From Chlamydiota bacterium (GTDB taxonomy: Bacteria; Auribacterota; JACPWU01): DNA of 32,000 bases. The notes under the pieces were generated by a model that saw nothing but the letters and a program-made list of their open reading frames with translations, searched no databases and was not told the origin of the DNA. Within the stretch, counting starts at the first letter, position 1, and each line of letters begins with the position of its first letter. The position numbers were made by a program, and so were the translations under genes. Below, piece by piece: positions 1,061-29,966 of the stretch. The stretch is from positions 1 to 32,000 of the forward strand of contig JACPWU010000046.1 in NCBI GenBank assembly GCA_016196885.1, written 5' to 3'.

Positions 1061-1321
1061 TCACTCTAAGGGTGGAATACAACGAAGAGGGCTCCTTTTT
1101 CTTGCCCGATCCCAATCATCCATCAACTCACTCAGATGAATTTTTCTCCACGCATTCACCAATCCCAAGGCTCGTTTGGACAAAGATCCTTTGATAATTT
1201 TTCCGCTTTCGATCTCAATCACGGCCTCCTCACCGCCATACTTGGCGTGAAAATGGGGTGGAGCATGATCATTCCAATAAATCGCAATGAGAATTCCGAA
1301 AAACCTACTAATGATTGGCAT
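1061..1321 (-). CDS. DUF4160 domain protein
   Basis: 86 aa. MPIISRFFGILIAIYWNDHAPPHFHAKYGGEEAVIEI matches the DUF4160 signature (dH-PPHfHa-Y). Confidence 0.9.
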   Translation of the reverse strand: MPIISRFFGILIAIYWNDHAPPHFHAKYGGEEAVIEIESGKIIKGSLSKRALGLVNAWRKIHLSELMDDWDRARKRSPLRCIPPLE

Positions 1322-1374
1322 GAGCTGATTTTACCATAAAAAGAGATGGACTTTTCAAAAAAAACTTAAACTCA

Positions 1375-4300
1375 TTACATGCTTTTTTCCGTCATCTCCG
1401 TCGTTTCACGAAATTTCTGCATCCTATCACGCCAATGGCTTACGCTTGTGAAGGGCGTGACTTGATGCTCGCCCAAATCCACAAGCAACCCTTTTAGCTC
1501 ATCAGCTTTAAAACCATGCTGAAGCAATGCTCGCGTCATTGCTTCGGCATCCCCATAACAAATAGCTGCCATCACGGAAACCATCTCTTGACCGTACATA
1601 AATTTATCAAAGAGCCCTTGAATGGGCTCGTACAAGTTTCTATTTTCACGATGCCCCAGCAGCCACTTTTCCACTTCCTTCCCCTGAAAAAGTTCCCTCA
1701 CTTTTGTATCAACTGCAGCTCTCGCATCCTGCTCATTCAAATCTGTCAGGAAAAGAACTCTATCTTGAGGAATGTGATGTTCCTTGCAAAGGGCATCAAA
1801 CTCTTCTCTAGATCTTTTTCGTTCCACAAAAACCATTTTGCGATTTTCTGTTCCAGATTCTTTAATGAATTCTGTCGGACTCAAGCCCCCCAAACTTTGA
1901 ACCAGTAAATCCATATCGGGGAATAGACACACAGGTTTTTGATCTGCAGATGGTTTTAAGGCCCCTAAAACTTTTTTCTGAAAATGACGAAGCTTTGTTT
2001 TTAATCCCATCAGATAAGCGAGGGCCAAAGATAAATCTTTAGGCCGTGACACTTGAACATGCGTAACACCCAGCGTCTCGGAATTCAATTGCTCAGTCAT
2101 CTCCCCTATTTCCATTTCAGATAACGCACCCTTCGTATCCTGTCTGATAGACCAGGTCACGTCTGAACTGAAATCAAGGGTAACCAAACCCTTCTGAAAC
2201 TCTCCTCTTTCTACCTTTCCTTCAAGCTCTTGTTCAACATTTCTAACTGTTTGATCTAACCCCTCCTCAGCCAGCAATCTCCTAGTCTCTAGCCCAAGAG
2301 AAAGTCTCTGGGCCTTTGCCTGAAAAGCCTTTGCCTGTTCAATAAGATCCGGATGTTTGACTTGGATCATGAGTTCGACCAGTGCAGCATCTAAAACGCT
2401 AAGATCATTTTCTGAGACAGCAAATGAACGTGTCCCCCTTCCCAACGTCCAAAGAATGTCATAAACCGTTTGGCTCTCCATCCACTCTTTGAGCGAAAGT
2501 CCACCCGTTATTTTCTCCTTTGCCCAGGATTCGAAAGAAAAAATTTCTTTCTTCTTCGTAATCAATATTTTGGAAGGAGCCGCACCACGCATAAAGCCAG
2601 GAGAGAGTAAATAGCTACCGTTGGCAAAAATCTTTGCATTCCCTCCGTGGTCTAGAAGCATCGCCTGAACACAACCTTTCTCGGCCGCAAGCTGAGCAAT
2701 TTCCCCAAGTGTCGTTCCTTCTCTGCCAGATTTTCCGCCATTGCCAAGAAGCACAAAACTCCCATCCTGAGTCACCCCAACAACCGTTCTAGGGTAAACT
2801 CCTTCCTTAAGGAAAATATCAATTCCATTCCCTTTAAAAGCAAATTCTCCTTTTCTTCGAACAGCCCCAGCTTCTTTTTCTTGATATCCCATTTTTTCTA
2901 AAAGCTTACGCAACACCTCTTGAGAAACTGCCTTCTCTTGAAACTCAATACGATCTCCCACTCTTAAACCTACTTTTACCTTAAGAGAAAGATGAATCGC
3001 ATGTATCCATGCCTCTTTTGCCGAGGCATAGTCATTTTCTGAAAGCTCAGATACGCCAAAATAGACTTCTCCTCGCGAGACTATTTCACCTTGAACATCA
3101 GAAATATCTTTAATGAAAATTCTAGGCAACTGAAAGACATGCCTTAAATCTTGAAACTGAGGAATAATATTTTCAATATCTTTCCGAGGATTTCCTCCAC
3201 CCTCTAGAAGAAATTGTCCAAACGTTACACCCTCAACTTCATCCGTAATATCCTGCCCCGCCATTAAAACCTGAATGCGAGCATCCTGCTGTGAATAGGT
3301 AACCTCCCCCATCTCAACTTTTCCATCCTTCTTAATCACAAGAGAACTATACGAATGAGCCGTTGGGTTTTCACTGTCTATATGAAAGAGTTGACCCTGA
3401 GTAAAAGTAACAAAACCTTGATTGAAGAAAAGACACGCATTGTCCGCAAAAGCGATCACATGAAGATCTGGATGTTCTGCTTCAAAAACTTTTACAGCTT
3501 CTTCGTCACTCCGTAAATGCTTTACAACTTCCTTAGGATCATTCGTGCGAACACCCCCTGGACCTGTATAAGTAAATGTTTGCGTATCGTGATCTGCAGT
3601 GATACGCCCCTGAAGATCGGCCTGAACAACCACATGCACTGCATACGCTTGAGGATTCACTTGCACCATTGCGATAGGGACCCCATTGGATGTGGCAGTG
3701 GTAGATATTTTAACTGGCTCTTCGACTGGAGAAAGAATAGGTTCTGGAATTCCTGCATTAATAAAAATTTGGAAAAGGGCCTGAGCTTTAGCCTCAGAAG
3801 ATCCAATAATTGCCGCTCTTATTTCAGACTCATTCGTAAATCGCCTCAATTGCTCTAATAAAGACTGAGAACCCCCTTCATGAGCGATTTGCAGCCATGT
3901 TCTAACCTGATTTTCATCGACACGATAATGAATGGGCCAAGGTAGTATATCTTTTAATTCTTTGAGCAATGAGTCCACAGATATTTCACCAACGCCCTTC
4001 CCCGCCATCGCCAAAGGCTTACTAATTTTTTGCGCAATCACCGCATCGTAGAAGCTATGGGCAAGGCCCACCAGCCCAAGAGCAGCTCCTATCGCAATCA
4101 ATGGGCCAAATGCAGTGAGTCCACCTACGAGAACGACATACGCCTGCCGAAGACCCAGGGCGATCACGAAAAGCCAGCCCCAATCTTTCCAAGTGGCCCT
4201 TGCTCCTTTTAACTCCAGTTTTCCATTCTCTCTCACCCACCGTTTCACTTCTGGATGGAACAAGGGAAACATCAAAGCACTGCCCCAAGAGCCCACATAA

Positions 4301-5427
4301 CGTCCCATCGAACGATCCACGCCAAAAAGATAATGCAAGGCAAGAGAAATTCCCTCTATCATCATCAATGAAAATAAAATTTCCTCCGTCCCGGAAAACC
4401 AGGCAATCGCTCGATCTGAAAAGCCCCATCGTTTTAAAAATTGATAATATCCTGACGCCAGCCCTAGGGAAGAAGCGCTGCCAAATGCTTCCCCATAAAT
4501 ACTCTTGACTTGCCTCGGACTTGATTCTAAGATTTTTCTCATGAATGAGAGAAAGACTCCAAAACCTATTCCTACTCCAGAAGAAACCCAGCGATACAAC
4601 TCCGTCATCATTGAGGAGATGAGAAGCCAATTTAAGGTTTTTGGCGAAGGACTCTCTGGACTGAGAGAGCGCATGGACCTGGGATTTGATGAGACCAGGA
4701 GAGAATTTTTAAAAATCGATAAGCGATTTGAAAAAGTTGACCAAAGATTTGCTAAAGCGGAAGAAACCCTTAAATTCCTTTCCTCTGGATTTTTAGAACT
4801 GAGCGACGGCCAAACCCGAACCCAATCCCAGCTCCAGAAATTAGATGAAAAAGTCTCGAAAATTGACTCTAGAGTCGCAAAGCTAGAAGAAAGCAACGCC
4901 CGTATTGAATCCGATATTCGCCTCATCAAAAACGACATCAAAGTTAAAGTAAGTTTAGAAGAATTTAAAGTGCTTGAAAATAGGCTTGCGATCGTTGAAA
5001 AAAGACTCGCTGCCCTTCCCATCTCTGCTTGATTAGCGCTATTTGAAATCCTTCTGGAACCCCCTATACTGCGTATCAAGCCATCCACATCCCCTTCATA
5101 TCCGCCTAACTCCAGCACTCTTTTCAGATAAATTTCTACGGGATGAGTGGTTTCTTTATCACTCAGAAAAAATCGCATCTGATCTTGCGTGAGCGTGGTC
5201 ACACGCTCAAGCCAGAGAAGAGGATTTTTCTGCAATTCTCCAGGAATTTGCAAATGATCGCCCTTAAGCACTTTTCGCTCTATTTCTCGAATAACCCCTT
5301 CTAAATCTCTCGCCCCCGCTTCCCCATATTCTAAATTAAGTTCTCGGGCCAAAGCTTCTTGATCCCTTTGCCATTGGTCAAATTGGAGAGCAGTGAGCCC
5401 CGCGGCAAGAGCAGCCTCTTCGCCCAA
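1375..5427 (-). CDS. giant multidomain membrane protein: CPBP/Abi-like TM module plus a phosphodiester glycosidase (NAGPA/DUF2233)-like domain; paralog of 22811..27523 in its N-terminal part
   Basis: Uninterrupted 1350-codon frame with a TTG start in the ORF track. CPBP-like motifs: EEILFS, FPLFH and HSFYD inside a hydrophobic block. NAGPA-like stretch: YPRTVVGVTQDGSFVLLGNGGKSGREGTTLGEIAQLAAEKGCVQAMLLDHGGNAKIF. Codons about 130-310 are Ser/Leu/Trp-rich low complexity, being the antisense of the ORF at 4541..5032, so it is uncertain whether one continuous protein is made. The first ~45 codons are homologous to the C-terminal tail of the 666-aa ORF (shared FDQW motif). Confidence 0.6.
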   Translation of the reverse strand: MGEEAALAAGLTALQFDQWQRDQEALARELNLEYGEAGARDLEGVIREIERKVLKGDHLQIPGELQKNPLLWLERVTTLTQDQMRFFLSDKETTHPVEIYLKRVLELGGYEGDVDGLIRSIGGSRRISNSANQAEMGRAASLFSTIASLFSSTLNSSKLTLTLMSFLMRRISDSIRALLSSSFATLESIFETFSSNFWSWDWVRVWPSLSSKNPEERNLRVSSALANLWSTFSNRLSIFKNSLLVSSNPRSMRSLSPESPSPKTLNWLLISSMMTELYRWVSSGVGIGFGVFLSFMRKILESSPRQVKSIYGEAFGSASSLGLASGYYQFLKRWGFSDRAIAWFSGTEEILFSLMMIEGISLALHYLFGVDRSMGRYVGSWGSALMFPLFHPEVKRWVRENGKLELKGARATWKDWGWLFVIALGLRQAYVVLVGGLTAFGPLIAIGAALGLVGLAHSFYDAVIAQKISKPLAMAGKGVGEISVDSLLKELKDILPWPIHYRVDENQVRTWLQIAHEGGSQSLLEQLRRFTNESEIRAAIIGSSEAKAQALFQIFINAGIPEPILSPVEEPVKISTTATSNGVPIAMVQVNPQAYAVHVVVQADLQGRITADHDTQTFTYTGPGGVRTNDPKEVVKHLRSDEEAVKVFEAEHPDLHVIAFADNACLFFNQGFVTFTQGQLFHIDSENPTAHSYSSLVIKKDGKVEMGEVTYSQQDARIQVLMAGQDITDEVEGVTFGQFLLEGGGNPRKDIENIIPQFQDLRHVFQLPRIFIKDISDVQGEIVSRGEVYFGVSELSENDYASAKEAWIHAIHLSLKVKVGLRVGDRIEFQEKAVSQEVLRKLLEKMGYQEKEAGAVRRKGEFAFKGNGIDIFLKEGVYPRTVVGVTQDGSFVLLGNGGKSGREGTTLGEIAQLAAEKGCVQAMLLDHGGNAKIFANGSYLLSPGFMRGAAPSKILITKKKEIFSFESWAKEKITGGLSLKEWMESQTVYDILWTLGRGTRSFAVSENDLSVLDAALVELMIQVKHPDLIEQAKAFQAKAQRLSLGLETRRLLAEEGLDQTVRNVEQELEGKVERGEFQKGLVTLDFSSDVTWSIRQDTKGALSEMEIGEMTEQLNSETLGVTHVQVSRPKDLSLALAYLMGLKTKLRHFQKKVLGALKPSADQKPVCLFPDMDLLVQSLGGLSPTEFIKESGTENRKMVFVERKRSREEFDALCKEHHIPQDRVLFLTDLNEQDARAAVDTKVRELFQGKEVEKWLLGHRENRNLYEPIQGLFDKFMYGQEMVSVMAAICYGDAEAMTRALLQHGFKADELKGLLVDLGEHQVTPFTSVSHWRDRMQKFRETTEMTEKSM
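4505..4533 (+). promoter_or_regulatory. candidate sigma70-type promoter for the embedded plus-strand ORF (TTGACT-17 nt-TAAGAT)
   Basis: TTGACT at 4505-4510, a 17-nt spacer, and TAAGAT at 4528-4533. The ATG at 4541 lies 7 nt after the -10 box and has no SD, which fits a leaderless or near-leaderless transcript. Confidence 0.35.
4541..5032 (+). CDS. coiled-coil protein embedded antisense within the giant ORF
   Basis: 163 codons from the ATG (the ORF track starts at TTG 4505). The composition is protein-like and heptad-like: LRERMDLGFDETRREFLKIDKRFEKVDQRFAKAEETL...LDEKVSKIDSRVAKLEESNARIESDIRLIKNDI...LENRLAIVEKRLAAL. The opposite-strand translation over the same bases is atypical (roughly 25% Ser, several Trp). 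Confidence 0.5.
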   Translation: MNERKTPKPIPTPEETQRYNSVIIEEMRSQFKVFGEGLSGLRERMDLGFDETRREFLKIDKRFEKVDQRFAKAEETLKFLSSGFLELSDGQTRTQSQLQKLDEKVSKIDSRVAKLEESNARIESDIRLIKNDIKVKVSLEEFKVLENRLAIVEKRLAALPISA

Positions 5428-5891
5428 AGAGCCTATTTCCTCAAGAAAGTGAAGCCTCGCGATTTTCTGAAGGGTCGGAAGTGAGGCCTCTTTAAGGCAT
5501 CAGGAGCGCCCGAAACAAATCCAAACTGCTCTTTCATCTTCCTAAAATAGGCGCTGCGATCATTATGACCCGTCATACGAGGCGCAATCACCCAATAACC
5601 GATCTTGGCCTCTTTCAATTTCTTCGTAATCCCTTCCGTATGAAACCCACCCACCACAAGCGCTGCACAGGTGAGTTTCTTTTCCTGAATAATTTCAAGA
5701 GACTTCTCGAACATGATTTGGTCTCGCTTCAGAACTTGGGCATAGAATTTTTGGGAGAGGACGAAGATCTCTCCAAAATCTTCAAGAATAGGGGATGATA
5801 GATTATTTGCTTCAGAATTGACTTCTTTTGTTAAGGTCTTCAGACGATAAAGGAAGTCTTTTACATATTCTTCTTCTCTTTGTGAGTCTTT

Positions 5892-6025
5892 CCTCCCCCT
5901 TATTTTTTTAAGGGGGACTGGGGGGGTTAACTCCTCTTCTTTCATAACTCCCCTAACCCCTCTCAAGCTTTTACAAGATTTTATAGTCCCCACGGGATAG
6001 TCCCCTTGGGATATCTTAAGAGGGG
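5892..6025. repeat. multi-hairpin palindromic element lying in frame inside the coding sequence (same family as 27979..28064 and 28326..28426)
   Basis: Hairpins CCCCCTTA-loop-TAAGGGGG, GGGGGTTAA...TAACCCCTC, and CCCCTCT...AGAGGGG. Translated as SPLK...LRGVRGVMKEEELTPPVPLKKIRGRK. Confidence 0.6.
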
Positions 6026-6925
6026 AAAAAGAACCACCCCATACAACTTTTACATCCCCCCTTTTCCCTTCCAAATTTACAATACGCTTCAACCGTCTAT
6101 AATCGTCCTGAAGTTGAAAAAGTTCTTTCTCTCGATCCTCTCTCAGCAACACTTTAAAGATTTTCTCTTCCACTTGATGAATTTCATTGTCCAACTGTGT
6201 CCATGAGATTTCACTTAAAAACTTCATTTGCTGAAACAGCAATTCCAAATTTTTGTATTTTTGTGAATCCTGAACTCTACTTAAATATTTACTTAAATAT
6301 AAATAATGTTCCTCATCGCTCACCTGTCCTAAGCGATGCTCTAATACTTGTCTCAAAAGTTCTTTCAATTCCTCTTTTGGAAGTTGCTTTTCTAACACTT
6401 CAAGAAATTCTAAATACTCACTCTCTAATTTCTTATGGTTTGTATCCATTTCCAAAGCTTTCAAGGTTTGAAATTTTCCTAACACCGGATTTCTTTCACC
6501 TATTTTTTCTGAAATACTCTCTCGTATAATCCCACCAAATAAGAAACATATGCATCCATGCCTAATTTCAATGTTTCGTAATTTTCTTTCTTTTTCATCA
6601 ACTCCTGAATCTCTTCAGAATAAATTTTCTCTGACAACTTTTGAAATACATGCTCCAAATCCTGCCAGACCTGTTCTTGCCGCCCCTTTTCCTCCAAAAG
6701 CTCACCCATCACTTTGAGGTTCTGAACATAATCAGGCAAATTTTCGACGCCCACCCCTTTCACTTTTTCAGGGCCCTGCTCAATGAGAAAAGCTTCTACC
6801 GCATCCAATTCATTTTTATCCAAGAATTTCTTTAGGCAAGAGGTCAACACCTTTTGATCCGGAAAGGACCAAAAAAAGGACATGTCCATGTCTTTGCTGG
6901 CGGCTTCGGAGAGAACATAAAAAAG

Positions 6926-6989
6926 GCTGGGGAGCTAGGAGGCTAGAGGACTTCCTCTCCCTAGCTTCCCAGCTTCCTAACTTCCTAGC
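6926..6989. repeat. inverted repeat built from 8-nt units (GCTRGGAG arrays facing CTCCYAGC arrays), inside the coding sequence
   Basis: gctggggagctaggaggctagagga / tcctctccctagcttcccagcttcctaacttcctagc. Equivalent element at 29086..29157. Translated as KLGSWEARERKSSSLLAPQ. Confidence 0.7.
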
Positions 6990-7529
6990 TCTGATTGTCA
7001 TTTCTTCTAATATTTCCAATATCCTTTTGATATTCCCTTGTGCTTCAGCATTACAATGAATGTCTTCAATGATAAAAACATGAGGTTGACCTGGAACTGT
7101 GAATGGGTCTATCACTTCTCCAATGGAGGAAGAAAGGTGAAAAGTCTCAAAAGAAGGTTTTAGCTTCCCATATTTGAGAGAGGACGTTCCCTGAGTAGGA
7201 GTTAGAGTTTTTAGAGGGGTTATAAATTGTGAATCTTAGCCCAACGCATAGGAAAAATCGTAGAACAGAAAGGAAATACAAATAAATAGGCTTATGAACG
7301 ACTGAAGACATCGTTTGCGCCCTTTTTGACAAAGCCTCATAAATCCCCCCAGCCTCAGTGTCCTATTATAAAGACGCAATTGAAGGCTCAAATGCCAAAA
7401 AAATAACGTCAAATTGACCCTTCAGTACCCCTTAAACTCCTATTTTTTACCTAAGTCAAAAAAAGAGTAGACTTTTTTATACTTTGGTATAAACTGTAAG
7501 AGATCGTCGGAAACCTTTGGAAAAGTGAT

Positions 7530-8705
7530 ATGTTTATACGATATTTGGAAAAAGCTATCTTAGAAACTTTGCCCAATAAAATGGTTTTTATTTCGGGACC
7601 CCGTCAAGTGGGTAAAACCACCTTGGCTCGTGAAATTGGGAATCGCCTCTATCACAATAGTCATGCCTATCTTAATTGGGATTACATCGAGGATCGAAGA
7701 ATCATTTCCAAGGGCCTACTTCCAACGGATAAAAAGCTTTTTATCTTTGATGAAATCCACAAATATAAGAATTGGAAAAATTACTTGAAGGGACAATACG
7801 ATAAATACAAAGACACGTTTCGCATCCTTGTTACCGGTAGCGCTAGGCTGGATATTTACAGACGTGGTGGAGACTCGCTTCTCGGACGGTATTATTCCTA
7901 TCGTCTGCATCCATTATCTGTCCATGAGCTTAGCAAAGAAGACGTTCATGTCACACCCATGAAAGAACTCCATTTTATTGAAAGAAATGAACAAGAAAAA
8001 ATTTTTGAAATGCTCCTAAAATTTGGAGGATTCCCGGAAGTTTTCTTTAAACAAAATGAGAAAAATCTTCGCCTTTGGCATCATCAACGCATAGACCGAT
8101 TGGTCAAAGAGGACATTCGAGATGTTGAAAATCTAAGAGACATTTCAGCACTGCAAATTCTGGTAGATATTTTACCCGAAAAAGTGGGTTCTCTCTTTTC
8201 GCTCAACAGCCTCCGAGAAGATTTTAACGTCGCTTATAAAACCATTGCCCTCTGGATGGAGGTGTTGGAAAAATTTTATTATCATTTTCGAATTTATCCC
8301 TATCAGAACACCTTGATTAAATCCCTTCGAAAGGAACCCAAGCTTTATTTATGGGATTGGTCTCAAGTCAAAAACGAAAACGCAAGATTGGAAAATATGG
8401 TAGCCTCTCATCTCTTAAAATTCGTGCACTATCTATCGGATGTTGAAGGGTTTAAAACTCAACTGTCTTATTTAAGAGATAAAGAACAGAGGGAAGTAGA
8501 CTTTATGGTTAGCTTGGACGGGAAACCATGGTTTTGTGTTGAGGTCAAACAAAGTTCAACAGAAGTCCCCAGCTCCTTAAAGTATTTTGCTTCAAAACTT
8601 AAAATCCCTTTTGTTTATCAAGTGACCGGAGAAAAAGATTTTGATTTCATGAAGGACAATGTTCGCATCATTAGCGCATCGAAGTTTTTGAGCGCATTGG
8701 TATAA
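7530..8705 (+). CDS. AAA-family ATPase with a DUF4143-type C-terminal domain
   Basis: Walker A GPRQVGKTT, Walker B LFIFDEIH, ILVTGSARLDIYRRGGDSLLGRYYSYRLHPLS; length 391 aa is typical of the AAA_14/DUF4143 family. Confidence 0.9.
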   Translation: MFIRYLEKAILETLPNKMVFISGPRQVGKTTLAREIGNRLYHNSHAYLNWDYIEDRRIISKGLLPTDKKLFIFDEIHKYKNWKNYLKGQYDKYKDTFRILVTGSARLDIYRRGGDSLLGRYYSYRLHPLSVHELSKEDVHVTPMKELHFIERNEQEKIFEMLLKFGGFPEVFFKQNEKNLRLWHHQRIDRLVKEDIRDVENLRDISALQILVDILPEKVGSLFSLNSLREDFNVAYKTIALWMEVLEKFYYHFRIYPYQNTLIKSLRKEPKLYLWDWSQVKNENARLENMVASHLLKFVHYLSDVEGFKTQLSYLRDKEQREVDFMVSLDGKPWFCVEVKQSSTEVPSSLKYFASKLKIPFVYQVTGEKDFDFMKDNVRIISASKFLSALV

Positions 8706-8728
8706 TAAAAAAATGCGATTCTATTAGC

Positions 8729-10363
8729 ATGACCCTCTCAAAAAAACATCTTTTTTCACTTCTCTTCATTGTTGTCGTCATCCTGATTGCTTACGCCAAC
8801 AGCTTCCAGAACCACTTTGTTTGGGACGATGACCTGCTCATTGTTCAAAATCAATACCTTCAGAGTCCTCATCACATCTCCAACTTTTTCACAGAAAATA
8901 TTTTTAAGGGTTCAGATCACGAAAGCAATTTTTGGAGGCCTTTACAATTGATCAGTTTCTTCATGGATCAAAAAATCTGGGGAGCAAATGCTTACGGATT
9001 TCATTTAACGAATCTTTTACTGCATATCCTTGCATCCTTAGAGGTTTATCTGTTTATCTTTCTTCTCTTTCGAAGAAAGGGTCTGGCCCTTCTCACCAGC
9101 CTTTTATGGGCCCTACACCCCATTCAAACGGAAGCTGTCACTTATATTTCAGGCCGCGCAGATCCTCTGGCTGCCTACTTCATCCTTTCATCTCTTTGCC
9201 TGTATCTCTATCATCGTCAAAGAGCATCACTTCTTGCCTATCTGGGAAGTCTTATTTCATTTGTTCTTGCTCTTCTCTCCAAAGAAATGGCACTTATGCT
9301 TCCGGTTTATCTTATGCTGTTCGAAACGGTCCTTTATCAAAAGGGAGAAAAAAAATTCTGGAATATTTTTTTAAGATTACTTCCCTTCATCTCAATTGTG
9401 TCACTATATATAAGCCTTCGTCTGACAGTTCTTAACTTCTCAGACAGTCCCCTGATCCAAGATAATCCCTTTCGCCTCATTCCTCTTCCATTAAGACTGC
9501 TCACTTTCACCAAAACCCTTTTTGGCATTTCGTTTAATTCCATCACCCATCACTGGGAAACAGGCTATTTTTGGCTTCTTCTTTTTCCCTTTAATCTTCA
9601 CATGGAAAGAAGCACCGCTTACGCCAAAAGTTTCTTTCAATGGCCCTATCTTTCAACCCTCATCCTTTTTGGAATATGGATATTTGCCCTCTTTCGAACC
9701 TCTCAGAAATCTAAACTTCAATTTTTTGGCCTAACCCTTTTTCTCATCGCCCTTCTGCCTTTTTCAGACCTTATCCCCCTCAACGCAAACATGGCAGAGC
9801 ATTGGCTGTACATTCCTTCTATCGGAATTTTTCTCATCTTGTCTGATTTAGTCTTCCAAGGGTTCAAAAAATATCCAATCACAGTTTCATGCCTTTTCAT
9901 CCCCTATCTCCTCTATCTCGGAACAACAACCTATTTTAGGAATCAAGATTGGAAAGATGAAATGACAATTTGGCAGCAAACGGCAGAACTCTCACAGAGC
10001 TCTCACATCCATGGAAATTTAGCAGTTGCTTATGGCCGGCAAGGAAATCTTCAAAAAGCAGAGAAAGAACTTAAAAAAGCCGTCGCACTACAATTTAATT
10101 ATCCCGAGGCCCACAACAATCTCGGGCTCCTTTATATTGCCAAAGGAAATTTAACGGAAGCTCTCCAAGAATTTTCCTGGGCCATTCAATTTAATCCCAC
10201 CTATTCCAATGCCTATAAAAATCTGGGAGACGTTTATGAGGCCATGAACAATTTAGACGAAGCAAAGAAAATGTGGAAAAAAGCACTTGAAATCAATCCA
10301 ATGAATGAAGGAGCGAAGGAAAAACTAAAAAAATCATCTCACCAACCCCTCTCCACCACCTAA
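8729..10363 (+). CDS. polytopic membrane protein with C-terminal TPR repeats (TMTC/PMT-like glycosyltransferase family)
   Basis: N-terminal FVWDDDLLIVQN ... FWRPLQLISFFMD ... HLTNLLLHIL ... HPIQTEAVTYISGRADPLA with many TM segments. C-terminal TPR units (AEKELKKAVALQFNYPEAHNNLGLLYIAKGNLTEA...). Confidence 0.8.
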   Translation: MTLSKKHLFSLLFIVVVILIAYANSFQNHFVWDDDLLIVQNQYLQSPHHISNFFTENIFKGSDHESNFWRPLQLISFFMDQKIWGANAYGFHLTNLLLHILASLEVYLFIFLLFRRKGLALLTSLLWALHPIQTEAVTYISGRADPLAAYFILSSLCLYLYHRQRASLLAYLGSLISFVLALLSKEMALMLPVYLMLFETVLYQKGEKKFWNIFLRLLPFISIVSLYISLRLTVLNFSDSPLIQDNPFRLIPLPLRLLTFTKTLFGISFNSITHHWETGYFWLLLFPFNLHMERSTAYAKSFFQWPYLSTLILFGIWIFALFRTSQKSKLQFFGLTLFLIALLPFSDLIPLNANMAEHWLYIPSIGIFLILSDLVFQGFKKYPITVSCLFIPYLLYLGTTTYFRNQDWKDEMTIWQQTAELSQSSHIHGNLAVAYGRQGNLQKAEKELKKAVALQFNYPEAHNNLGLLYIAKGNLTEALQEFSWAIQFNPTYSNAYKNLGDVYEAMNNLDEAKKMWKKALEINPMNEGAKEKLKKSSHQPLSTT

Positions 10364-10494
10364 GGCGGGTGGCACGACTGGGGGTCCCCTGCTAACGCCA
10401 GCAGGTCGAGACTTACGTCCCAAAAGTTCTAAACGAAAAACCACCAACGAGACCGATGCCGTTAGTGGGGGTGAGGAGGGACAGGACCCGCCTT
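10362..10494. ncRNA. candidate structured RNA / conserved repeat element, copy A (short form)
   Basis: Shares four conserved blocks with 16595..16790: GGCMCGACTGGGGGTCCC, GCCAGCAGGTMGAG, ACCGATGCCGT, GGGTGAGGAGGGACAGGMCC. Closing stem AAGGCGGGT/ACCCGCCTT. Inner stem CTAACG (10392-97) / CGTTAG (10460-65). It fills the gap between two convergent stop codons. Strand not determined. Confidence 0.45.
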
Positions 10495-10496
10495 CC

Positions 10497-11303
10497 CTAC
10501 ATATTCACGCACCGATGCGTTTTCTGAGGAATGTCACGATGATGGATAATGCGATTTCGGCCCTCTTCTTTCGCCATGTAAAGCGCCTCATCGGCCTGGC
10601 GCAAAAGTTCATCCGCATCCAAGGCATCTGAAGGGCAGGTTGCAATCCCTCCGCTCACCGTCACATGCACAATCTCCTTCGAGCCAGGGATCAAAAACTC
10701 TTGAGTTTTAATATGAACTCTCAAACGGTCTGCGACTTCCATGGCCACACGCCCCAATGTTTGAGACATCACCACTACAAATTCTTCCCCCCCAAAACGA
10801 GCGACCAAATCCGCCCCCCTTGAATAACACGATAAAATCTTCGCAATTCTCTGAAGCACACGATCCCCCACCAAATGCCCCCACTTGTCGTTCAGGCGTT
10901 TGAAATGATCCACATCCAGAAACAACAATGAAAAGGCGAGCGGATAACGGCGGCTCTTGTCAAATTCCTTTTCCAGATAATCCTTCAAGAAACGCCGGTT
11001 GTAAAGACCTGTGAGGGAATCTCGGATGGCGCAATCTTGAGTCCTGCGATACTGATCTCTTTCAATGAGCACAGGCCCACGGATTTTACGCACACGGTTC
11101 ATAAAATAATCGGCGAGGGCAACGGTAAAACCCACAGGACGGCTTAAAGCTTCTTCCAACTGCTTCTGATGGCTGAGGATCGAATACCAGTGCTGTTCGG
11201 CTTCTTCTTCGCTGAGGGTCAGGCTGCAGAATTGACTTAAAAGAGTCTTAAAACTCCTTTTCATCATATCCCCCCTTTTCGTTAGTCGTTCGTTATTCGT
11301 CAT
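10497..11303 (-). CDS. diguanylate cyclase (GGDEF domain, with an RxxD I-site)
   Basis: RFGGEEFVVVM active-site motif, with RGAD five residues upstream (I-site), and LDVDHFKRLNDKWGH. The first 12 codons (MTNNERLTKRGD) come from a heptamer repeat array. The more likely start is ATG 11267 (MMKRSF), preceded by AAAAGGGGGG. Confidence 0.9.
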   Translation of the reverse strand: MTNNERLTKRGDMMKRSFKTLLSQFCSLTLSEEEAEQHWYSILSHQKQLEEALSRPVGFTVALADYFMNRVRKIRGPVLIERDQYRRTQDCAIRDSLTGLYNRRFLKDYLEKEFDKSRRYPLAFSLLFLDVDHFKRLNDKWGHLVGDRVLQRIAKILSCYSRGADLVARFGGEEFVVVMSQTLGRVAMEVADRLRVHIKTQEFLIPGSKEIVHVTVSGGIATCPSDALDADELLRQADEALYMAKEEGRNRIIHHRDIPQKTHRCVNM

Positions 11304-11929: not shown

Positions 11930-11988
11930 TGTAGTCGCCCCATTTATGGGGCCGTCTATGGATTTGCCCGATGAATCGGGCGACTACA
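11930..11988. repeat. REP-like double-hairpin element, copy 1
   Basis: Perfect 10-nt terminal inverted repeat TGTAGTCGCC/GGCGACTACA enclosing hairpins CCCCATTTATGGGG and GCCCGATGAATCGGGC. The reverse complement matches 16521..16567 apart from a ~12-nt internal indel. Confidence 0.85.
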
Positions 11989-16447: not shown

Positions 16448-16520
16448 CTCTACCCCAATAATTTCAATGATCTTTCAAGATCATCGTATACGATAAAAGT
16501 TCTCCCCATCATGCTTTTTT

Positions 16521-16567
16521 TGTAGTCGCCCGATTCATCGGGCAGCCCCATAAATGGGGCGACTACA
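16521..16567. repeat. REP-like double-hairpin element, copy 2 (inverted relative to copy 1)
   Basis: TGTAGTCGCC-CGATTCATCGGGC-A-GCCCCATAAATGGGGC-GACTACA. Same termini and both hairpins as 11930..11988 in the opposite orientation. Confidence 0.85.
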
Positions 16568-16594
16568 AAATGAGCCTCACTTTCATAACAAAAT

Positions 16595-16790
16595 AAGCGA
16601 GTGGCCCGACTGGGGGTCCCCCATTGAGCGCCAGCAGGTAGAGGCAAATAACTTTCAATTTCTATCAACAACAAATTCGATACCGATGCCGTCTCAGCAT
16701 AAGGAAAAAAACATCTACTATCGCAGTCGGCCCTTTTTCTGCCACAGGCAGCGGGCCTCCTTTGCTGGGTGAGGAGGGACAGGCCCCACT
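16595..16790. ncRNA. candidate structured RNA / conserved repeat element, copy B (long form with a ~70-nt extra segment)
   Basis: Same four conserved blocks as 10362..10494. Inner stem TGAGCG (16625-30) / CGTCTCA (16690-96) differs from copy A but stays complementary. The element abuts the cinA stop codon. Confidence 0.45.
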
Positions 16791-22598: not shown

Positions 22599-22814
22599 TT
22601 AAACATTCTCCAGAAGAGAACTGATCTGTTTACGGCGAGTCTCCAATTCATCCAATTCGAAAAAGTCTTCCCAACCCTCTTCTTCGCGAATCTTACCCGA
22701 TTGTATGAATTGATCCAACTGAAACACATCTTTTACTTCATGACGAGATGCAATTCTAAAAATCTCCGATTCCACATGACGCAACTGTTGCTCCAAATAA
22801 GTCCGCAGACTCAT
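22599..22814 (-). CDS. small acidic hypothetical protein, start overlapping the giant ORF stop (ATGA)
   Basis: 71 aa. ATG 22814-22812 overlaps TGA 22813-22811. No family recognised. Confidence 0.5.
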   Translation of the reverse strand: MSLRTYLEQQLRHVESEIFRIASRHEVKDVFQLDQFIQSGKIREEEGWEDFFELDELETRRKQISSLLENV

Positions 22815-25800
22815 TTGACACGGATTTGGTCTTTTTCGCCGCCCATAACTAAAACAAGATTTCCTGCAATATCATTTTGATTAGTCATGGGCCAAAAATC
22901 TGAATCTTTTAAACCATGTTGATCTTTATCTACATCCCCTTTTGCGTCAAAGAAACGAGCATCTATTTTCATTTGCCTTAAGAAATGTACCATAGCCAAA
23001 ACTTCTTGAGCCCGTTCAGGATTCTCAAGCGACCTTACATCAAATGCAAATTTGAGAGGCACTCTTAAATCTGTGATCCTGCCTTGAATCGCCTTTTTTA
23101 AATTTGCCTTCAAGCTCCAAAGCTTTTTCACAGAAAGTGCAGCCCCCAAGCCCCATCTCATTTTTTCTTGAGGAGAAAGATCAGAAGAAGCCACTTCTAC
23201 ATGAACACTCGCGTCTCGAAGACTCAAAGCATCTCTCAAGGAAGTATCCAACGTTACAGAATCTTCGGAAATTCCAGCAGCCTCTTCACTCAAAGCTCGT
23301 ACTTCCCCGTCGCGAATGTTTAAAACAATCCCTTCTTTATGCGTAAAAGTGTCTCCTGCCAAACGCTCCATTCTCTGAACTTGATCTGCTACACCCGTCT
23401 GAGCAAACCCATACATCATGCGAAGCTCTAAAGCTAAACGCTGTATTTCCCCTCCTCTCTGCTCATATATTGAAAGACTCAATTCTTCTATTAAAACATC
23501 CAGCGTATTGCGCGATAGACGAGGATGATCACGTAGATATTTATCCAAAATATCTGCGAATGTCCTAAGAACTTCTGCATCTGAAATATCTCTGCGAGAT
23601 AAATAATCATCGAAGGCCCTATTTTCTATCAACGCATCATTATCTGTCAACCAGCCCATAAACTTGAGCATAACTCTTTGACGGAGGTCTAAAAAGTAAA
23701 GACTCCTGCTATCCAACAGCCTATGAACTAGAGAAACATCTTCATCTCTCATTTGCTTGACCAACCTAGATTCAGACGACAAAGTCTCAAGAAATGCTGT
23801 TTTGAAATCATCTGAATTCTCTATAAGACTTATATCTTGCACGAGACCTGTCCTTAAAATCTCAATATCTTGATATGTCAAAACTCCATGCAACTCATCG
23901 CCTTTTTTACTCATCTCATGCATAGCCTCATGCGAAGTGCCATAAATCCAGTCGGCTTGGCGATGTTCTTGAGGAATGTTGGTGAGATGCTTTAGATTAA
24001 CGAAAAATTTCCCATCGCCCACACAGTTTCCGTAGGGCGAGCGAAAGTCATAACCCTCTTTGAGATGCTTTTCATCTCCAAAATAAAAGGTGTATTCCCC
24101 ATCCGCTAAAGTTGTTGTTTCAAATTCTAAATCCTCTGCCCTTGCTCGAATAAAATCGCCCCATTTCTTCAGGAACTCTTGCTCTTGATCCGCTTTAATT
24201 CCTAAAAGTCGATAGAGCGCTTTTTTCTCATCAGAATCGGGAACACTAAACTGGCCGTCCGTCACTGTTATTGTGATCGGGTTGCCATCCAAGAGTATAT
24301 TCACCTGAGCCATTTCTTGAGAAGGATATTCTAAGTCCGACCTGTTCTGAGCGTCAAAATGGGCGTATGATCCCCCTTCAACAAGAACATTCTTCTCAGT
24401 GTCATACCTCACACTGATTTGCTCTAAATATTTCTGAAACGCCTGCTGAACGTTACGTAACAATTGCCAATCCTGATCTGTCAAAGGAACACTCACAACA
24501 TTTTGATTATGCTCATGTTGTGTTCCTCTTAGCTCGCTCCATTTATTGAGAGAGGGATAGAGCCTTGTGTATTTTTCAGGATAACCGGCCAGATAGCCTG
24601 CGAGTTCGATTAACTCTGTATCTGAAAGACCTTTTAAATCCATTGGGTAGGTTTTCACTTTTAGAATTTGCCATCCCGTCCCTTCAAAAGTCTTTTGTGC
24701 CGTGGCTCCCACCCGCAATAAGAGCGGAGGAGAAGTGACCAATTCCACTTTAAGATCAGAACGGCCGAGAAAAAGTCTCTCGACCCCTTGTTTGCTGTTG
24801 ACCAAAGTATCCACCGTCACGCGTGATGGTTGTTCTTCTATATGAATCAATTCAGGCTCATCAAATTTAGATAAAATCCCTTCTTTTTCAAAACAAAATT
24901 TTAGGATATCCGATTCTAAAAAACTTTCATCCGTGATACCTTTCTCCAACCGCTTCTTCTCAGCAGGAGTTAATGTTCCCAAAGCTTCATAGTGGACAAT
25001 GGTTTTTTCTATCAAAGGAATCGTTCCTCTTCCTCGGCCAGCAGCGATGACAATGGGAATACGCAGGCCTCTCTCATCTCGAATTCCCTTCCATGTATTC
25101 GCAAACTCTATAAAAGCTCGAAGATCCGGATTTCCTAAAGCGAGAAAAACATCCGGTAACTGATCCGAAAGTTCATCTCCTTGCGAAAGAAAATCCACGT
25201 AATCTTGAAAAACTGTTTTGAAATTTTCCCTTGCTTCCTGCAAAGGTTCTTTTCCTAAAGCAACAGTATCACTGAAAAATTTCCGCTCCTCAGGCGTTCC
25301 ATGATCACGAAGCCAACCCTTAACGTACCCCTCAGATTCGTCATATCCTCTCTGAGCTAGCTCTAAAATTTCTCTTTCCTCCCAACGAGACGCTATAGCA
25401 CCTATAAATTCAAAAACCTGAACTGTATTTTTTTTCCCAAGACGTCTAGAAATCTTACCTAGTACAGAACATACTGGTTCTTGAAGATAAACCTTTTGTT
25501 TTTCCTCCTCTGAAATTTCATCTCCTATGGCCAAGCGCGCAGAAATACCCCCCACGCCTCCAGTCTGCATAAGTTTCCGCTGATTCGCGCTCGATCTTCC
25601 CTGAATAACCGGACTCCCTCGTTCCTGAAGCGCTTCCAAAATCCCAAAATGAGCTGCACCATAAAGCAATATGACCGCATAACCTTTCTGCGATGCTTCT
25701 AAAACCTGTTCGACGATGCGACGATTCCTATTAGTCGCATACACGCTCCAAGCACTAACAACTTCATCCATCCATTGAAAATATTGAAGGCTTTGTTCTG

Positions 25801-27523
25801 GTGTTCTAAGGCCAGTAGAAAAAAAATACTCCAAAGCCCGTGTCCTTCTTCCTTCCTTCCAGAAGCCGGACAACCAATCTTGGAACTGAATGTCCTCAAG
25901 AATAACCCTCGTATGTGTTTGAGCTATCCATTGCATGAGCATTGCTTCAAAATCTGAAACACATTTTTGAACCCAGTTAAAAACAACCCCGCTGTTTAGA
26001 ATAGACTCGTATGCCTTTCTCATAGCCTGAAGTTGAAAATCAAAATGATGCCTCTTCAATACATTCTCAATGAAATCAGGGATTTGTTCCACCGTCTTAA
26101 TAAATTCGTCTGGTAATAAAGATAAAAGAGAACGATATTCTCCTGAAATGTCTGCTGGACTAAGCCGGGCAGGTCCACCATTGTCTAATATCAAAACAAG
26201 TCTCCGCCCTTCTTCACTGGCCTTACGCCTTGCTTCTTCTAAATCTGGAAGATGCTTTTCAAAATCCTCCTTCGATTGATTAGCCATTGCAATGTATGTA
26301 ATGGAACCTGGTGGAATGCCTGCAGAGGTATCTATTTTTTTAGGCATTTGTAGCTTTTTTCTATTCCATTCATTCACCAAATTCGCGATACGACCAGCCG
26401 GAGCATTTCCTCCTGTAAAATCTAAAACTCTGAGTATTTTCTGAACAATCTTTGTATTTAACGCTTTTCCCTGGCTCCTGGTTAAAAGTTCTCTGAGCTG
26501 GCGATCTAAGTCCGCGTCACTTGATCTTTTTTTCCGTTTAATCCCATTGACTTTTAAAATCTCTCGTTTCAGTTTTTGAAAATCATCATCTGCTAATACC
26601 AACTGATAGGGTTTCGGCATAACGAGGTTATAAATCACATGCCCCGCATACGCCCACAAAGCCTGATTCCACCCCGAACTCCCTTTAGAATATTCAGCAA
26701 ATTTGTCGAAGAAACTCAAACTCTCGGGATCAAAAGAAGCAAGCGCTACGGGAAGTAAACTACTGATGAGAGTGGCAGCAAACCAACGAACTAAAAATTG
26801 TGTGAACTTTTCTTTAGTAGTTAATCCCGGTGGCGCATGAATCAAATGAATCAGGGCAAAAATGAAAGCCCCCACCGGAATCCCCCACACGCCCAATACC
26901 GGCGCCAAAAAACGCGCAAACCCCGGCAAGCCCAAAAGTTCTAACGCTGGAATTACACCTACTCTCACCCAGCGCTTCTTTAAAATCTCATCAGCCCTGG
27001 CCTGGGCCTTATCTTTCTCCATTCCACCCAGCCTCAGAACTCCGTCTAGAACCCAGTTCCAGAGGGGGAGAACGAGTTGAGATAAACCATCTTCCGCCAA
27101 CCCTTCTTGATCCATAGGTAAGCTGATCCTTACAAGATCTTTTTTCTCCAAGCCAGGGGGTCGCGATACTTCCACCTCACTTGATCCAGTTTCACTTGGT
27201 GCAGCGGACACCACCCCTACCATTTCTCCCATCAACTGAAGCGTTCTAACCCCTAGAAAATTTTTTGAATTTCTTTTCCCATCTTTAGCGTCGCCTCCCA
27301 CATATTTCTCCATCAAATCACGAAACTCTTCATATCCCTCCCCCAAAGATTCTTTTAAATAGGCCTCTGTCAATTTTTGAATCGTTCCACCCTCATGCAA
27401 AAGTTGATTCATTTGTTTCAATTTATTGGTTAATTCTGGATCTAAAATGGAGCTTGTCGAATGCCCATGTTTTTTTTGAGCGCTTGAATCACAGGTTTTA
27501 GAGAGGGAACTGATTTTTCCCAT
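22811..27523 (-). CDS. giant multidomain membrane protein: CPBP/Abi-like TM module, TraB/GumN-like C-half, DUF218/YdcF-like domain, HExxH motif
   Basis: 1570-codon frame. CPBP-like FIFALIH and AGHVIYNLV sit in a hydrophobic block. TraB/GumN-like NRNRRIVEQVLEASQKGYAVILLYGAAHFGILEAL. DUF218-like DVFLALGN...IPIVIAAGRGRGT...ESDILKFCFEKEGI...IHIEEQPSRVTVDTLVNS...VELVTSPPLLLRVG. Zincin-like GTSHEAMHEM. The first 27 codons overlap the upstream ORF; an alternative start is ATG 27412 (MNQLL). Confidence 0.75.
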   Translation of the reverse strand: MGKISSLSKTCDSSAQKKHGHSTSSILDPELTNKLKQMNQLLHEGGTIQKLTEAYLKESLGEGYEEFRDLMEKYVGGDAKDGKRNSKNFLGVRTLQLMGEMVGVVSAAPSETGSSEVEVSRPPGLEKKDLVRISLPMDQEGLAEDGLSQLVLPLWNWVLDGVLRLGGMEKDKAQARADEILKKRWVRVGVIPALELLGLPGFARFLAPVLGVWGIPVGAFIFALIHLIHAPPGLTTKEKFTQFLVRWFAATLISSLLPVALASFDPESLSFFDKFAEYSKGSSGWNQALWAYAGHVIYNLVMPKPYQLVLADDDFQKLKREILKVNGIKRKKRSSDADLDRQLRELLTRSQGKALNTKIVQKILRVLDFTGGNAPAGRIANLVNEWNRKKLQMPKKIDTSAGIPPGSITYIAMANQSKEDFEKHLPDLEEARRKASEEGRRLVLILDNGGPARLSPADISGEYRSLLSLLPDEFIKTVEQIPDFIENVLKRHHFDFQLQAMRKAYESILNSGVVFNWVQKCVSDFEAMLMQWIAQTHTRVILEDIQFQDWLSGFWKEGRRTRALEYFFSTGLRTPEQSLQYFQWMDEVVSAWSVYATNRNRRIVEQVLEASQKGYAVILLYGAAHFGILEALQERGSPVIQGRSSANQRKLMQTGGVGGISARLAIGDEISEEEKQKVYLQEPVCSVLGKISRRLGKKNTVQVFEFIGAIASRWEEREILELAQRGYDESEGYVKGWLRDHGTPEERKFFSDTVALGKEPLQEARENFKTVFQDYVDFLSQGDELSDQLPDVFLALGNPDLRAFIEFANTWKGIRDERGLRIPIVIAAGRGRGTIPLIEKTIVHYEALGTLTPAEKKRLEKGITDESFLESDILKFCFEKEGILSKFDEPELIHIEEQPSRVTVDTLVNSKQGVERLFLGRSDLKVELVTSPPLLLRVGATAQKTFEGTGWQILKVKTYPMDLKGLSDTELIELAGYLAGYPEKYTRLYPSLNKWSELRGTQHEHNQNVVSVPLTDQDWQLLRNVQQAFQKYLEQISVRYDTEKNVLVEGGSYAHFDAQNRSDLEYPSQEMAQVNILLDGNPITITVTDGQFSVPDSDEKKALYRLLGIKADQEQEFLKKWGDFIRARAEDLEFETTTLADGEYTFYFGDEKHLKEGYDFRSPYGNCVGDGKFFVNLKHLTNIPQEHRQADWIYGTSHEAMHEMSKKGDELHGVLTYQDIEILRTGLVQDISLIENSDDFKTAFLETLSSESRLVKQMRDEDVSLVHRLLDSRSLYFLDLRQRVMLKFMGWLTDNDALIENRAFDDYLSRRDISDAEVLRTFADILDKYLRDHPRLSRNTLDVLIEELSLSIYEQRGGEIQRLALELRMMYGFAQTGVADQVQRMERLAGDTFTHKEGIVLNIRDGEVRALSEEAAGISEDSVTLDTSLRDALSLRDASVHVEVASSDLSPQEKMRWGLGAALSVKKLWSLKANLKKAIQGRITDLRVPLKFAFDVRSLENPERAQEVLAMVHFLRQMKIDARFFDAKGDVDKDQHGLKDSDFWPMTNQNDIAGNLVLVMGGEKDQIRVK

Positions 27524-29442: not shown

Positions 29443-29675
29443 AATGACACTGATGAGTTTTTGAACTCATTTCATAAAAATGTCTTTACCTCTATAAAAA
29501 TTCATAACTTATTTATATACAAAAAGATACGACATTATTATTTTTTAAAAAACAAGGCCGCACGAGATTATCATTCAATGAGAATAGACATTTTATGAAG
29601 GGGAAAGGTCAAAGGAGAAAAAATGTGATTTTGGATTTTAAATAGGATAGAATGACTCTTAGTAAGGAGTTTTTC

Positions 29676-29966
29676 ATGCCTCTCTACGAGTTTCTCAAGA
29701 AAAGAAGAAATGACATCCTTCAAGCTGCTCTGCGACATGGGGCAAAAAACGTACGCTTGTTTGGCTCGGTTACACGTAAAGAAGAAAATACCCAAAGTGA
29801 CATTGACCTTCTCGTCGAAATGGAAAAAGGGAGAAGTTATCTTGACTTAGTTGAGTTATGGCAAGAATTAGAGGAACTTCTTGGGAAGAAAGTAGACCTT
29901 CTGACAGACGGAGGGATCAGTCCTTATTTAAAAGATCGCATTTACTCTGAAGCCATTCCCTTATGA
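29676..29966 (+). CDS. mntA: nucleotidyltransferase antitoxin (MntA type)
   Basis: RLFGSVTRKEENTQSDIDLLVEM (GS-x10-DxD). Start set at ATG 29676, preceded by AAGGAG at a 6-nt spacing (the track start 29652 is also possible). The stop overlaps the hepT start (ATGA). Confidence 0.85.
   Translation: MPLYEFLKKRRNDILQAALRHGAKNVRLFGSVTRKEENTQSDIDLLVEMEKGRSYLDLVELWQELEELLGKKVDLLTDGGISPYLKDRIYSEAIPL

Follow-up and report, generated by a model that had tools for sequence, protein, structure and literature searches.

A predicted composite reading frame across a nested antisense gene in a decaying giant-protein paralog of a Chlamydiota bacterium

Giant proteins of more than 10,000 amino acids (aa), which combine a signal peptide and transmembrane segments with multiple enzymes, have been described for the Omnitrophota (West-Roberts et al., 2023, bioRxiv 10.1101/2023.11.21.568195; Nielsen and Lui, 2026, bioRxiv 10.64898/2026.06.07.730766), and Chlamydiae go unmentioned in the 2023 paper. 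Here we describe two copies of a related gene in a 32,000-nucleotide (nt) stretch of a Chlamydiota metagenome-assembled genome (MAG; GCA_016196885.1, contig JACPWU010000046.1, positions 1 to 32,000; hereafter ‘the window’), both on the reverse strand: copy 2, at 1375–7340, and copy 1, which consists of a 666-aa open reading frame (ORF; p666, 27442–29442) and a 1570-aa ORF (p1570). Like the Omnitrophota giants, the family of these copies has modules separated by membrane segments and combines many unrelated enzymes per chain; its N-termini resemble signal peptides, and two of its parts, the N-terminal module (N-module) and a NAGPA-like domain, occur in Omnitrophota proteins of 1.7–5 thousand aa as well. 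Unlike those giants, the window copies are short (~2000 codons for copy 2 when its frames are stitched together, 2236 for copy 1), broken, and found in MAGs labelled Chlamydiae, and their relatives reach at most 7768 aa rather than more than 10,000. Copy 2 is an ordinary decaying paralog of this known kind of giant protein; its unusual part is an intact small gene nested on the opposite strand, across the back of which the longest ORF of the copy, of 1350 codons (ORF1350), appears to run as a composite frame.

Two further kinds of described system invite comparison. Shadow ORFs usually occur in the antisense frame that is wobble-aligned with a gene, and the locus resembles these and other nested antisense genes in having a long stop-free frame opposite a real gene, with third codon positions coinciding; it differs in that the native coding sequence to either side continues in the phase of the shadow, which is annotated within a giant protein in two lineages (the window and the sister-species protein P0002). 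Polymorphic toxin, Rhs and contact-dependent inhibition systems have, as these two copies do, paralogs within one genome that keep the N-terminal part and differ, without homology, in the distal part, and an earlier note on this DNA, made from the sequence alone, had seen a resemblance to polymorphic or modular surface systems. That resemblance did not hold up: the distal parts of the window copies are housekeeping-type enzyme modules, neither contains a toxin domain in family searches (Pfam with whole proteins and nine isolated segments at E ≤ 5; NCBIfam), no immunity gene is adjacent (the genes downstream of the copies are a DUF4160/DUF2442 pair and a 71-aa ORF without a family), and no orphan distal cassettes with junction homology were found.

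A small gene on the back of the 1350-codon frame

ORF1350 exactly matches an NCBI protein, MBI1883291.1 (‘MAG: phosphodiester glycosidase family protein [Chlamydiae bacterium]’; contig JACOUD010000031.1, GCA_016178005.1), and its frame divides into a 125-codon tail and linker relic, the shadow of a nested gene, and a 1055-codon distal part. The relic, together with a conserved linker, occupies 5056–5448 and includes codons 1–124 (annotated TTG start at 5427), as judged by alignment with the p666 tail and with the relatives P0166 and P0036, and the distal part, which begins with an ATG in the same frame at 4542, runs on to the stop at 1375. Between them, residues ~125–296 are Ser/Leu-rich (including ASLFSTIASLFSSTLNSSK) and are the exact antisense of a forward-strand ORF at 4505–5032, whose true start is the ATG at 4541 and which from there to its TGA at 5032 is an intact gene for a 163-aa, heptad-patterned coiled-coil protein (including IESDIRLIK). 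The reverse-strand ATG at 4542 overlaps that of the small gene in a shared CATG. A promoter-like site, TTGACT-17-TAAGAT (4505–4533), lies 8–12 nt upstream of the small gene's ATG and is kept in three Chlamydiota copies. The wobble-aligned antisense frame of the small gene is stop-free and so joins the linker relic to the distal part, giving the annotated 1350-aa protein; what the earlier note took for one intact gene is very probably not a single coding sequence but a composite frame, bridged by the back of the small gene.

That the small gene is the selected reading of this overlap is indicated by its lower ratio of nonsynonymous to synonymous substitution rates (dN/dS): in its conserved C-terminal block the sense frame has a dN/dS of 0.03–0.25, against 0.12–0.71 for the antisense frame, and between the two embedded copies the values are 0.03 and 0.12, respectively. 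We conclude from these comparisons that the nested gene is, by all appearances, under purifying selection in its sense frame; both strands are open over the whole overlap, and the locus so shows two of the features expected of a nested antisense gene pair. Standalone homologs of 101–137 aa (P0003–P0008, E from 1e-16 to 1e-24) occur in Chlamydiota MAGs, and more distant ones in Planctomycetia and Patescibacteria MAGs. Scans with the small-protein alignment returned only three distant loci in GTDB genomes and none in metagenomes. The nested unit lacks flanking target duplications and terminal inverted repeats.

A single database protein, P0002 (2240 aa, sister species), is homologous to the Ser/Leu-rich stretch, and it holds an intact 164-aa copy of the small gene in antisense. 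The wobble-aligned antisense register has zero stops in the window copy, in P0002, in the small gene P0008 and in a Planctomycetia homolog (L010), and 2–3 stops in the standalone copies P0004 and L012; by codon shuffling, the chance of a stop-free antisense frame is 0.064 for the window copy and 0.04 for P0002 (range 0.04–0.09; 0.32 for L010). In both ORF1350 and P0002 the native coding sequence on either flank shares the phase of this frame. A third paralog (locus L009) has no antisense coiled-coil gene in its Ser/Thr-rich linker.

Several other arrangements involving the small gene were noted in relatives. In two sister MAGs, P0008 directly follows a giant gene in tail-to-tail orientation, and in the sister MAG GCA_016196915.1 (L002 6775–7260) one stop codon separates P0002 from ~150 more open codons in the same frame, which are the antisense of P0008. 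Within P0002, the sequence 3′ of the internal copy (..EM|NLEYLK..) resembles the P0002/P0008 junction (..AM*..SEYLK..), which hints at fusion by loss of a stop codon. On a Planctomycetia MAG contig (L010 1814–2494), a small-gene homolog is wholly overlapped by an opposite-strand 226-aa ORF, the N-terminal part of which matches an intein splicing domain at E = 1e-5, below the Pfam cutoff; next to them on the contig is an apparently transposase-like ORF.

Paralogy and frame breaks of the two copies

The relation of copy 2 to copy 1 was established by a tblastn search of p666 against window positions 1300–7600, which gave four collinear matches (linked E-value 1e-105): p666 residues 1–117 with 7283–6927 (41% identity), 99–251 with 6988–6536 (48%), 257–608 with 6506–5514 (44% over 376 columns) and 616–648 with 5448–5350 (36%). 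The last of these lies in the frame of ORF1350, where the tail homology (LGE..FDQW) scores z = 6.7 against 300 shuffles in local alignment, and the stitched copy 2 aligns with the intact relatives P0166 and P0036 to residue ~750. These results support two paralogous loci with a common N-terminal module and different distal modules, and an ORF1350 that opens with a homolog of the p666 tail, both as proposed in the earlier note. The note had also aligned ORFs of 61, 99, 129 and 350 aa with p666; the collinearity and the latter three frames stand, and the 61-aa ORF (7147–7332) is in the wrong frame, the true one being that of a 58-aa ORF (7412–7236) followed by an upstream extension of the 99-aa ORF.

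Mapped in this way, copy 2 begins with an ATG at 7340 and a signal-peptide-like N-terminus (MRLCQKGRKRCLQSFISLFICISFLFYDFSYALG), closed by a TAA at 7238–7236 (7236–7340; by translation and alignment with P0010, P0011, P0036 and P0166, from which a basic-then-hydrophobic N-terminus is read in copy 2 and its relatives alike). Three N-module segments placed by tblastn follow: 6927–7235 in the frame of the 99-aa ORF, which is open upstream to 7235 and carries the conserved IEDIHCN motif; 6500–6925 in that of the 129-aa ORF, with a TAG end after an A6 run at 6503–6508; and 5433–6503 in that of the 350-aa ORF, with a VVGGFHT motif and a 113-nt hairpin element (5854–5966).

By three-frame translation and peptide mapping, the breaks in copy 2 comprise one nonsense codon and three frameshifts, so that the count of four in the first 1.9 kb given by the earlier note is correct. 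The nonsense codon is the TAA at 7238–7236, where relatives have Gln (a change of CAA-to-TAA type). The first frameshift, at ~6926, lies beside a T6 run (6919–6924) at the 3′ edge of a hairpin-forming GGAAGCTGGGAAGC repeat; the second is at the A6 run, where adding one A restores ...VFQKKIGERNPV... (QKKIGERN); and the third is placed within 5449–5495, in sequence without a homopolymer run. A Logan contig (L008, run SRR12113387), which is an independent assembly, is 100% identical over 5086 nt to window 5891–10976 and spans the TAA and two of the three frameshifts. A second MAG from another sample (HYZ67, 67,284-nt contig) has identical 127-aa, 343/350-aa, 1350-aa, 1570-aa and 625-aa products, and therefore also reproduces the fourth break and the junction between p666 and p1570; the segment 2 product is of 127 aa in this MAG and is the 129-aa version in the Logan contig. 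Because they are identical in three assemblies, the breaks are not assembly errors, and the population does carry them. When metagenome DNA was scanned across the A6 break, with the length of the run allowed to vary, no match was returned.

The lesions are unevenly distributed. All four lie in 1.9 kb of the ~5.0 kb of native frame, for which uniform decay gives a probability, (1.9/5.0)^4, of ~0.02, and both lesions of copy 1 lie in the first 2 kb of its 6.7 kb (~0.09 under uniform decay). Runs of at least six identical bases are denser in the N-modules than in the rest of the copies (3.1 against 1.9 per kb in copy 2; 8.3 against 3.2 in copy 1). The clustering means that the distal part may still be functional, and it hints at, without proving, ongoing selection on the distal parts. 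The earlier note's remark that the pattern is unlike uniform pseudogene decay is thus sustained, with the qualification that part of the clustering may be mutational; its statement that the following 4 kb hold no break misleads, as ~0.5 kb of that frame is the antisense of the intact opposite-strand gene.

Copy 1 is not an intact reference copy either, as shown by an early stop, a frameshift and a missing end. Its N-module (27442–29475) starts at an ATG at 29475, meets a TGA at codon 3 (29469–29467) and is then open to 27442. The p666 and p1570 ORFs overlap by 82 nt, within which one extra A in an A8 tract (27470–27477) would fuse both; since the sister-species protein P0035 (5912 aa) reads straight through the corresponding junction (..KPVIQSLREKHKGV..), the window has a frameshift there. 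The p1570 ORF (22811–27523) contains a membrane block, an HExxH-containing repeat unit and further modules. Copy 1 is 65–82% identical to P0035 across matched blocks (44% in the C-terminal block), has internal deletions relative to it, and lacks the last ~100 residues of P0035, which form a C-terminal cap common to P0035, P0036, P0166 and ORF1350. The 71-aa ORF behind it (22599–22814) overlaps the p1570 stop by 4 nt and matches no family; it does not encode the missing cap.

The modules that the earlier note had ascribed to copy 1 fared unevenly: the HExxH motif is present in p1570 as HEAMH, and neither the TraB-like nor the DUF218 module, labels drawn from short motifs, has a Pfam or NCBIfam match, even with isolated segments. 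A test for TraB/Tiki/ChaN gave only sub-threshold matches to DUF5694 (E = 0.03) and DUF5682 (E = 0.027), and comparison of the N-module with p1570 residues 380–680 by hhalign was not significant (probability 1.4%). The pattern EDIHC...RD...GGFHT may resemble the TraB/Tiki/ChaN-like superfamily, to which neither a profile nor a fold match was found. In the pairwise alignments that the note had proposed, the distal parts of the two giant ORFs lack significant similarity: BLASTP of ORF1350 against p1570 found none beyond the p666 tail, and local alignments, whether between the membrane blocks of both or between the ORF1350 and p1570 N-termini, did not rise above shuffles (z = 1.3–1.5). Taken jointly, we hold it highly probable that the two loci are paralogs, that the breaks are real, that ORF1350 is composite and that copy 1 is damaged.

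The distal part and its giant relatives

The only enzyme domain identified in copy 2, and the only family found by Pfam and NCBIfam among whole proteins and segments, is the NAGPA or phosphodiester-glycosidase-like domain that the earlier note had recognized (~3702–2548; ORF1350 residues 576–960, ~385 aa). Its Pfam core (2817–2599, residues ~871–943) matches the C-terminal half of PF09992 (model positions 87–154 of 169) with 47–49.6 bits against a cutoff of 25 (E = 4e-12 to 7e-13), and NAGPA chains in the Protein Data Bank (PDB; 6PKU-type) match ORF1350 at E = 3e-4. Exhaustive HMMER and BLAST searches found the domain in ~250 proteins, many of 1.7–7.8 thousand aa, and it aligns with Omnitrophota proteins without gaps or stops at 42–45% identity over ~380 residues. 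It is thus like the NAGPA family (human uncovering enzyme, PDB 6PKU; Slr0280, 5H3K) in its significant Pfam and PDB sequence matches, and unlike it in having an inserted UB2H-like stretch (sub-threshold) and in standing between a membrane block and a C-terminal cap (2547–1378, ending ...EKSM; delimited by comparison of caps).

The membrane block (~4470–3988, by hydropathy) has hydrophobic segments at ORF1350 residues 350–368 and 419–449, and p1570 is hydrophobic at residues 210–261. The earlier note had called the block CPBP-like, and the three motifs on which it relied (EEILFS, FPLFH, HSFYD) are present in the order expected of CPBP/Abi (Rce1-like) proteases (PF02517); the motif columns (EE.., F..xH, H..Y(D/N/S)) are kept in the blocks of the relatives P0042 and P0161 and align with FALIH and HVIYN of p1570. 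Unlike those proteases, the block lacks the Arg of EExxxR and any profile match: the isolated block has no Pfam match at E ≤ 5 and no NCBIfam match, and its profile matches no PDB entry. An AlphaFold model of the block is of low confidence (predicted local distance difference test, pLDDT, 64; predicted template modelling score, pTM, 0.38) and found no Foldseek match in the PDB at E ≤ 0.001, nor was Rce1 among the best 50 matches listed. We treat CPBP as a lead offered by short motifs, not as a finding.

The distal modules of ORF1350 (NAGPA-like domain, membrane block and cap) all recur in giant proteins, as seen by exhaustive HMMER followed by BLAST. P0036 (6910 aa) and P0166 (3146 aa) both finish with the cap (ORF1350 residues 975–1346), and the final residues of all these proteins are ..SM or ..QM. 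Three membrane blocks are present in P0042 (5976 aa, same genome) and three in P0035, and P0161 ends in another. Proteins of 1707–7768 aa from Chlamydiota and Omnitrophota MAGs begin with the N-module, and their annotations include phosphodiester glycosidase, SDR, protein kinase, (d)CMP kinase, methyltransferase, GDSL esterase, GNAT and NUDIX, in keeping with the earlier note's observation that distal enzymes vary behind a common N-terminus. In the third paralog, P0161 (988 aa, truncated where its contig stops; L009 6001–8966), the signal-peptide-like N-terminus is intact and the frame runs unbroken into the membrane block. Its end overlaps the beginning of P0042, itself at a contig start, by 33 residues with one mismatch, so that P0161 probably continues as P0042, the two being one gene of ~6.9 thousand codons split by assembly at an internal repeat. 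The gene of P0166 is split into P0167 and P0037 (938 and 2200 aa) in one of two sister-species MAGs by a frameshift in a GDDDxTS tandem repeat, which reflects either variation in repeat length or an artefact of assembly.

Keyword searches of both Omnitrophota papers found neither the shared ~650-aa N-module nor the cap. A scan of GTDB genomes with the N-module alignment found no locus, and PDB sequence searches with N-module and membrane-block profiles returned nothing. Modelled by AlphaFold from a 12-sequence alignment (pLDDT 71.6, pTM 0.65), the N-module has an alpha/beta core, where the model is of good quality, and a large helical insert; Foldseek found no fold match for it in the PDB beyond coiled-coil noise.

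Low-confidence loops of this model (residues 99–117, 334–376 and 458–492) coincide with hairpin repeats that are translated in frame. The 113-nt element of copy 2 is 90% identical to window 27941–28053 in copy 1, and ~100-nt elements of the type are also present at window 28320–28390 and L009 7450–7527; each comprises two GC-rich hairpins (GGGGTTA..TAACCCC and CCCCCTTA..TAAGGGGG) and is read as ..RGVRGVMKEEE.TP..PLKKIRGRK... Among three paralogs the element is 88–94% identical and its flanks only ~67%, which suggests constraint on the nucleic acid itself, at the DNA or RNA level, or gene conversion. A second, palindromic repeat of GGAAGCTGGGAAGC type (window 6915–7000 and 29075–29170) is translated KLGSWEA...SLLASQL, has a folding energy of −34 to −43 kcal/mol and is absent from the paralog P0010; relatives hold analogous in-frame palindromes (LEARGSKLEAKAKTGEAFTSSLEPRASS). 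Rickettsia palindromic elements are in-frame repeat insertions in genes, and the window repeats are like them in being translated in frame and located in low-confidence loops, and unlike them in sequence.

The window is otherwise ordinary chromosome, with alaS, recA, cinA, mnmA, mraZ, coaX, birA, a GGDEF protein and several toxin–antitoxin pairs; position 1 is a contig end. Copy 2 adjoins toxin–antitoxin-type genes (the DUF4160/DUF2442 pair and a Pol-beta nucleotidyltransferase, 439–1321), as does copy 1 (an MNT/HepT pair, 29652–30292). Intergenic palindromic repeats (TGTAGTCGCCCGATTCATCGGGC hairpins; 11952–11988 and 16513–16575) and a 45-nt direct repeat (GCGGGTGGCACGACTGGGGGTCCCC...; 10365–10410 and 16597–16643) occur at gene ends and may be terminators or similar to repetitive extragenic palindromic elements. 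Rfam and tRNA scans of the whole window found nothing.

What copy 2 may still encode

We lean towards reading copy 2 as a paralog with a dead N-module, a linker that hosts a functional opposite-strand gene, and a distal NAGPA-type glycosidase that is probably expressed alone. The family from which it derives has the order putative signal peptide, N-module, linker, membrane block, enzyme modules and C-terminal cap, and occurs in a groundwater clade of Chlamydiota MAGs as well as in Omnitrophota. The ~650-codon N-module of copy 2 would no longer be functional, transcription of the small gene would start within the composite frame and converge with that of the relic, and the distal part would probably still be made, from the ATG at 4542 or the TTG at 5427, as a predicted membrane-anchored NAGPA-type phosphodiester glycosidase acting on sugar-phosphate polymers of the cell surface. 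Such a function would explain why the distal part alone stayed open; the functional state of this part is the uncertain step. Several observations weigh against the reading. No convincing ribosome-binding site precedes the ATG at 4542, and the distal part has no moderately diverged orthologs from which dN/dS could speak for selection, the only other assembly being identical and the next relatives 26–45% identical. The denser homopolymer runs of the N-modules partly explain the clustering of lesions without selection. Finally, a stop-free chance of ~6%, together with the requirement that both flanks be in frame (~1/9), makes bridging by pure chance unlikely and leaves room for selection on read-through.

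Much turns on how the open distal frame and the bridge are to be explained. If the whole locus, distal part included, were a recently dead pseudogene whose 3.1-kb distal frame is open merely for want of time, then the four upstream lesions, the lost signal peptide and N-module, the linker interrupted by a foreign gene and the similar decay of copy 1, with its deletions relative to P0035, would all be expected, and the homopolymer runs would supply a neutral reason for the clustering; the sparing of the distal 3.1 kb by all four lesions, the parallel restriction of the copy 1 lesions to the first 2 kb, and a NAGPA-like domain that aligns gap- and stop-free with Omnitrophota proteins speak against this, and we think it unlikely, though it deserves some weight. 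Rather more doubtful to us is true dual coding, in which the 1350-codon frame, or a longer one, would be translated whole, with the Ser/Leu-rich stretch as a tolerated linker and the small gene as a frame-preserving antisense cassette. The low shuffling probabilities, the in-phase flanks in both ORF1350 and P0002, the single stop before the open antisense frame of P0008 and the Planctomycetia gene overlapped by an intein-like ORF are in its favour. P0002, however, was found only because its frame is open, which introduces ascertainment bias; moreover, the antisense frame is less constrained than the sense, P0004 and L012 carry stops in that frame, the destroyed N-module leaves no obvious driver for translating the full composite, and the register is the one in which shadow ORFs are usually found. 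A broader version, which we likewise judge improbable, makes the small gene and its promoter a cassette that settles repeatedly in or behind giant genes, antisense and in a stop-free register, with the giant translated through it and neighbouring giants fused by a single stop loss; its cases would be window copy 2, the internal copy in P0002, P0008 one stop behind P0002, and the intein-like ORF of the Planctomycetia contig.

Two readings would restore a full-length protein. Slippage at poly(A) tracts is known to rescue genes in endosymbionts, and three of the four frameshifts across both copies lie at or beside runs of 6–8 bases (A6, T6 and A8), so that phase variation or transcriptional or ribosomal slippage could be imagined to switch or bypass the breaks in one or both copies. 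Copy 2 would then require read-through of the TAA and three shifts, one of them without a homopolymer run, and copy 1 has its TGA at codon 3; the same out-of-frame state is, besides, present in all three assemblies, and we consider switching very unlikely. Least credible of all, and largely refuted, is the possibility allowed for in the earlier note, that sequencing or assembly errors have broken one ordinary long gene. The source is a MAG and two of the shifts are at homopolymer runs, but an independent assembly is identical over 5086 nt, a MAG from another sample has the same fragment proteins, one lesion is a base substitution, and the opposite-strand gene would interrupt the frame in any case.

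As a composite frame, ORF1350 is a caution for catalogues of very long proteins from MAGs, in which separate coding stretches can be fused into one ORF wherever a small gene between them is open in antisense. The comparisons also define a conserved ~650-aa N-module and a C-terminal cap, and extend the giant-protein class beyond the Omnitrophota to a Chlamydiota clade. If the opposite strand were translated as well, the nested gene would stand among the rare natural instances of long dual coding, and the cassette reading, if true, would suggest a mechanism of gene fusion and thus a route by which giant ORFs grow.

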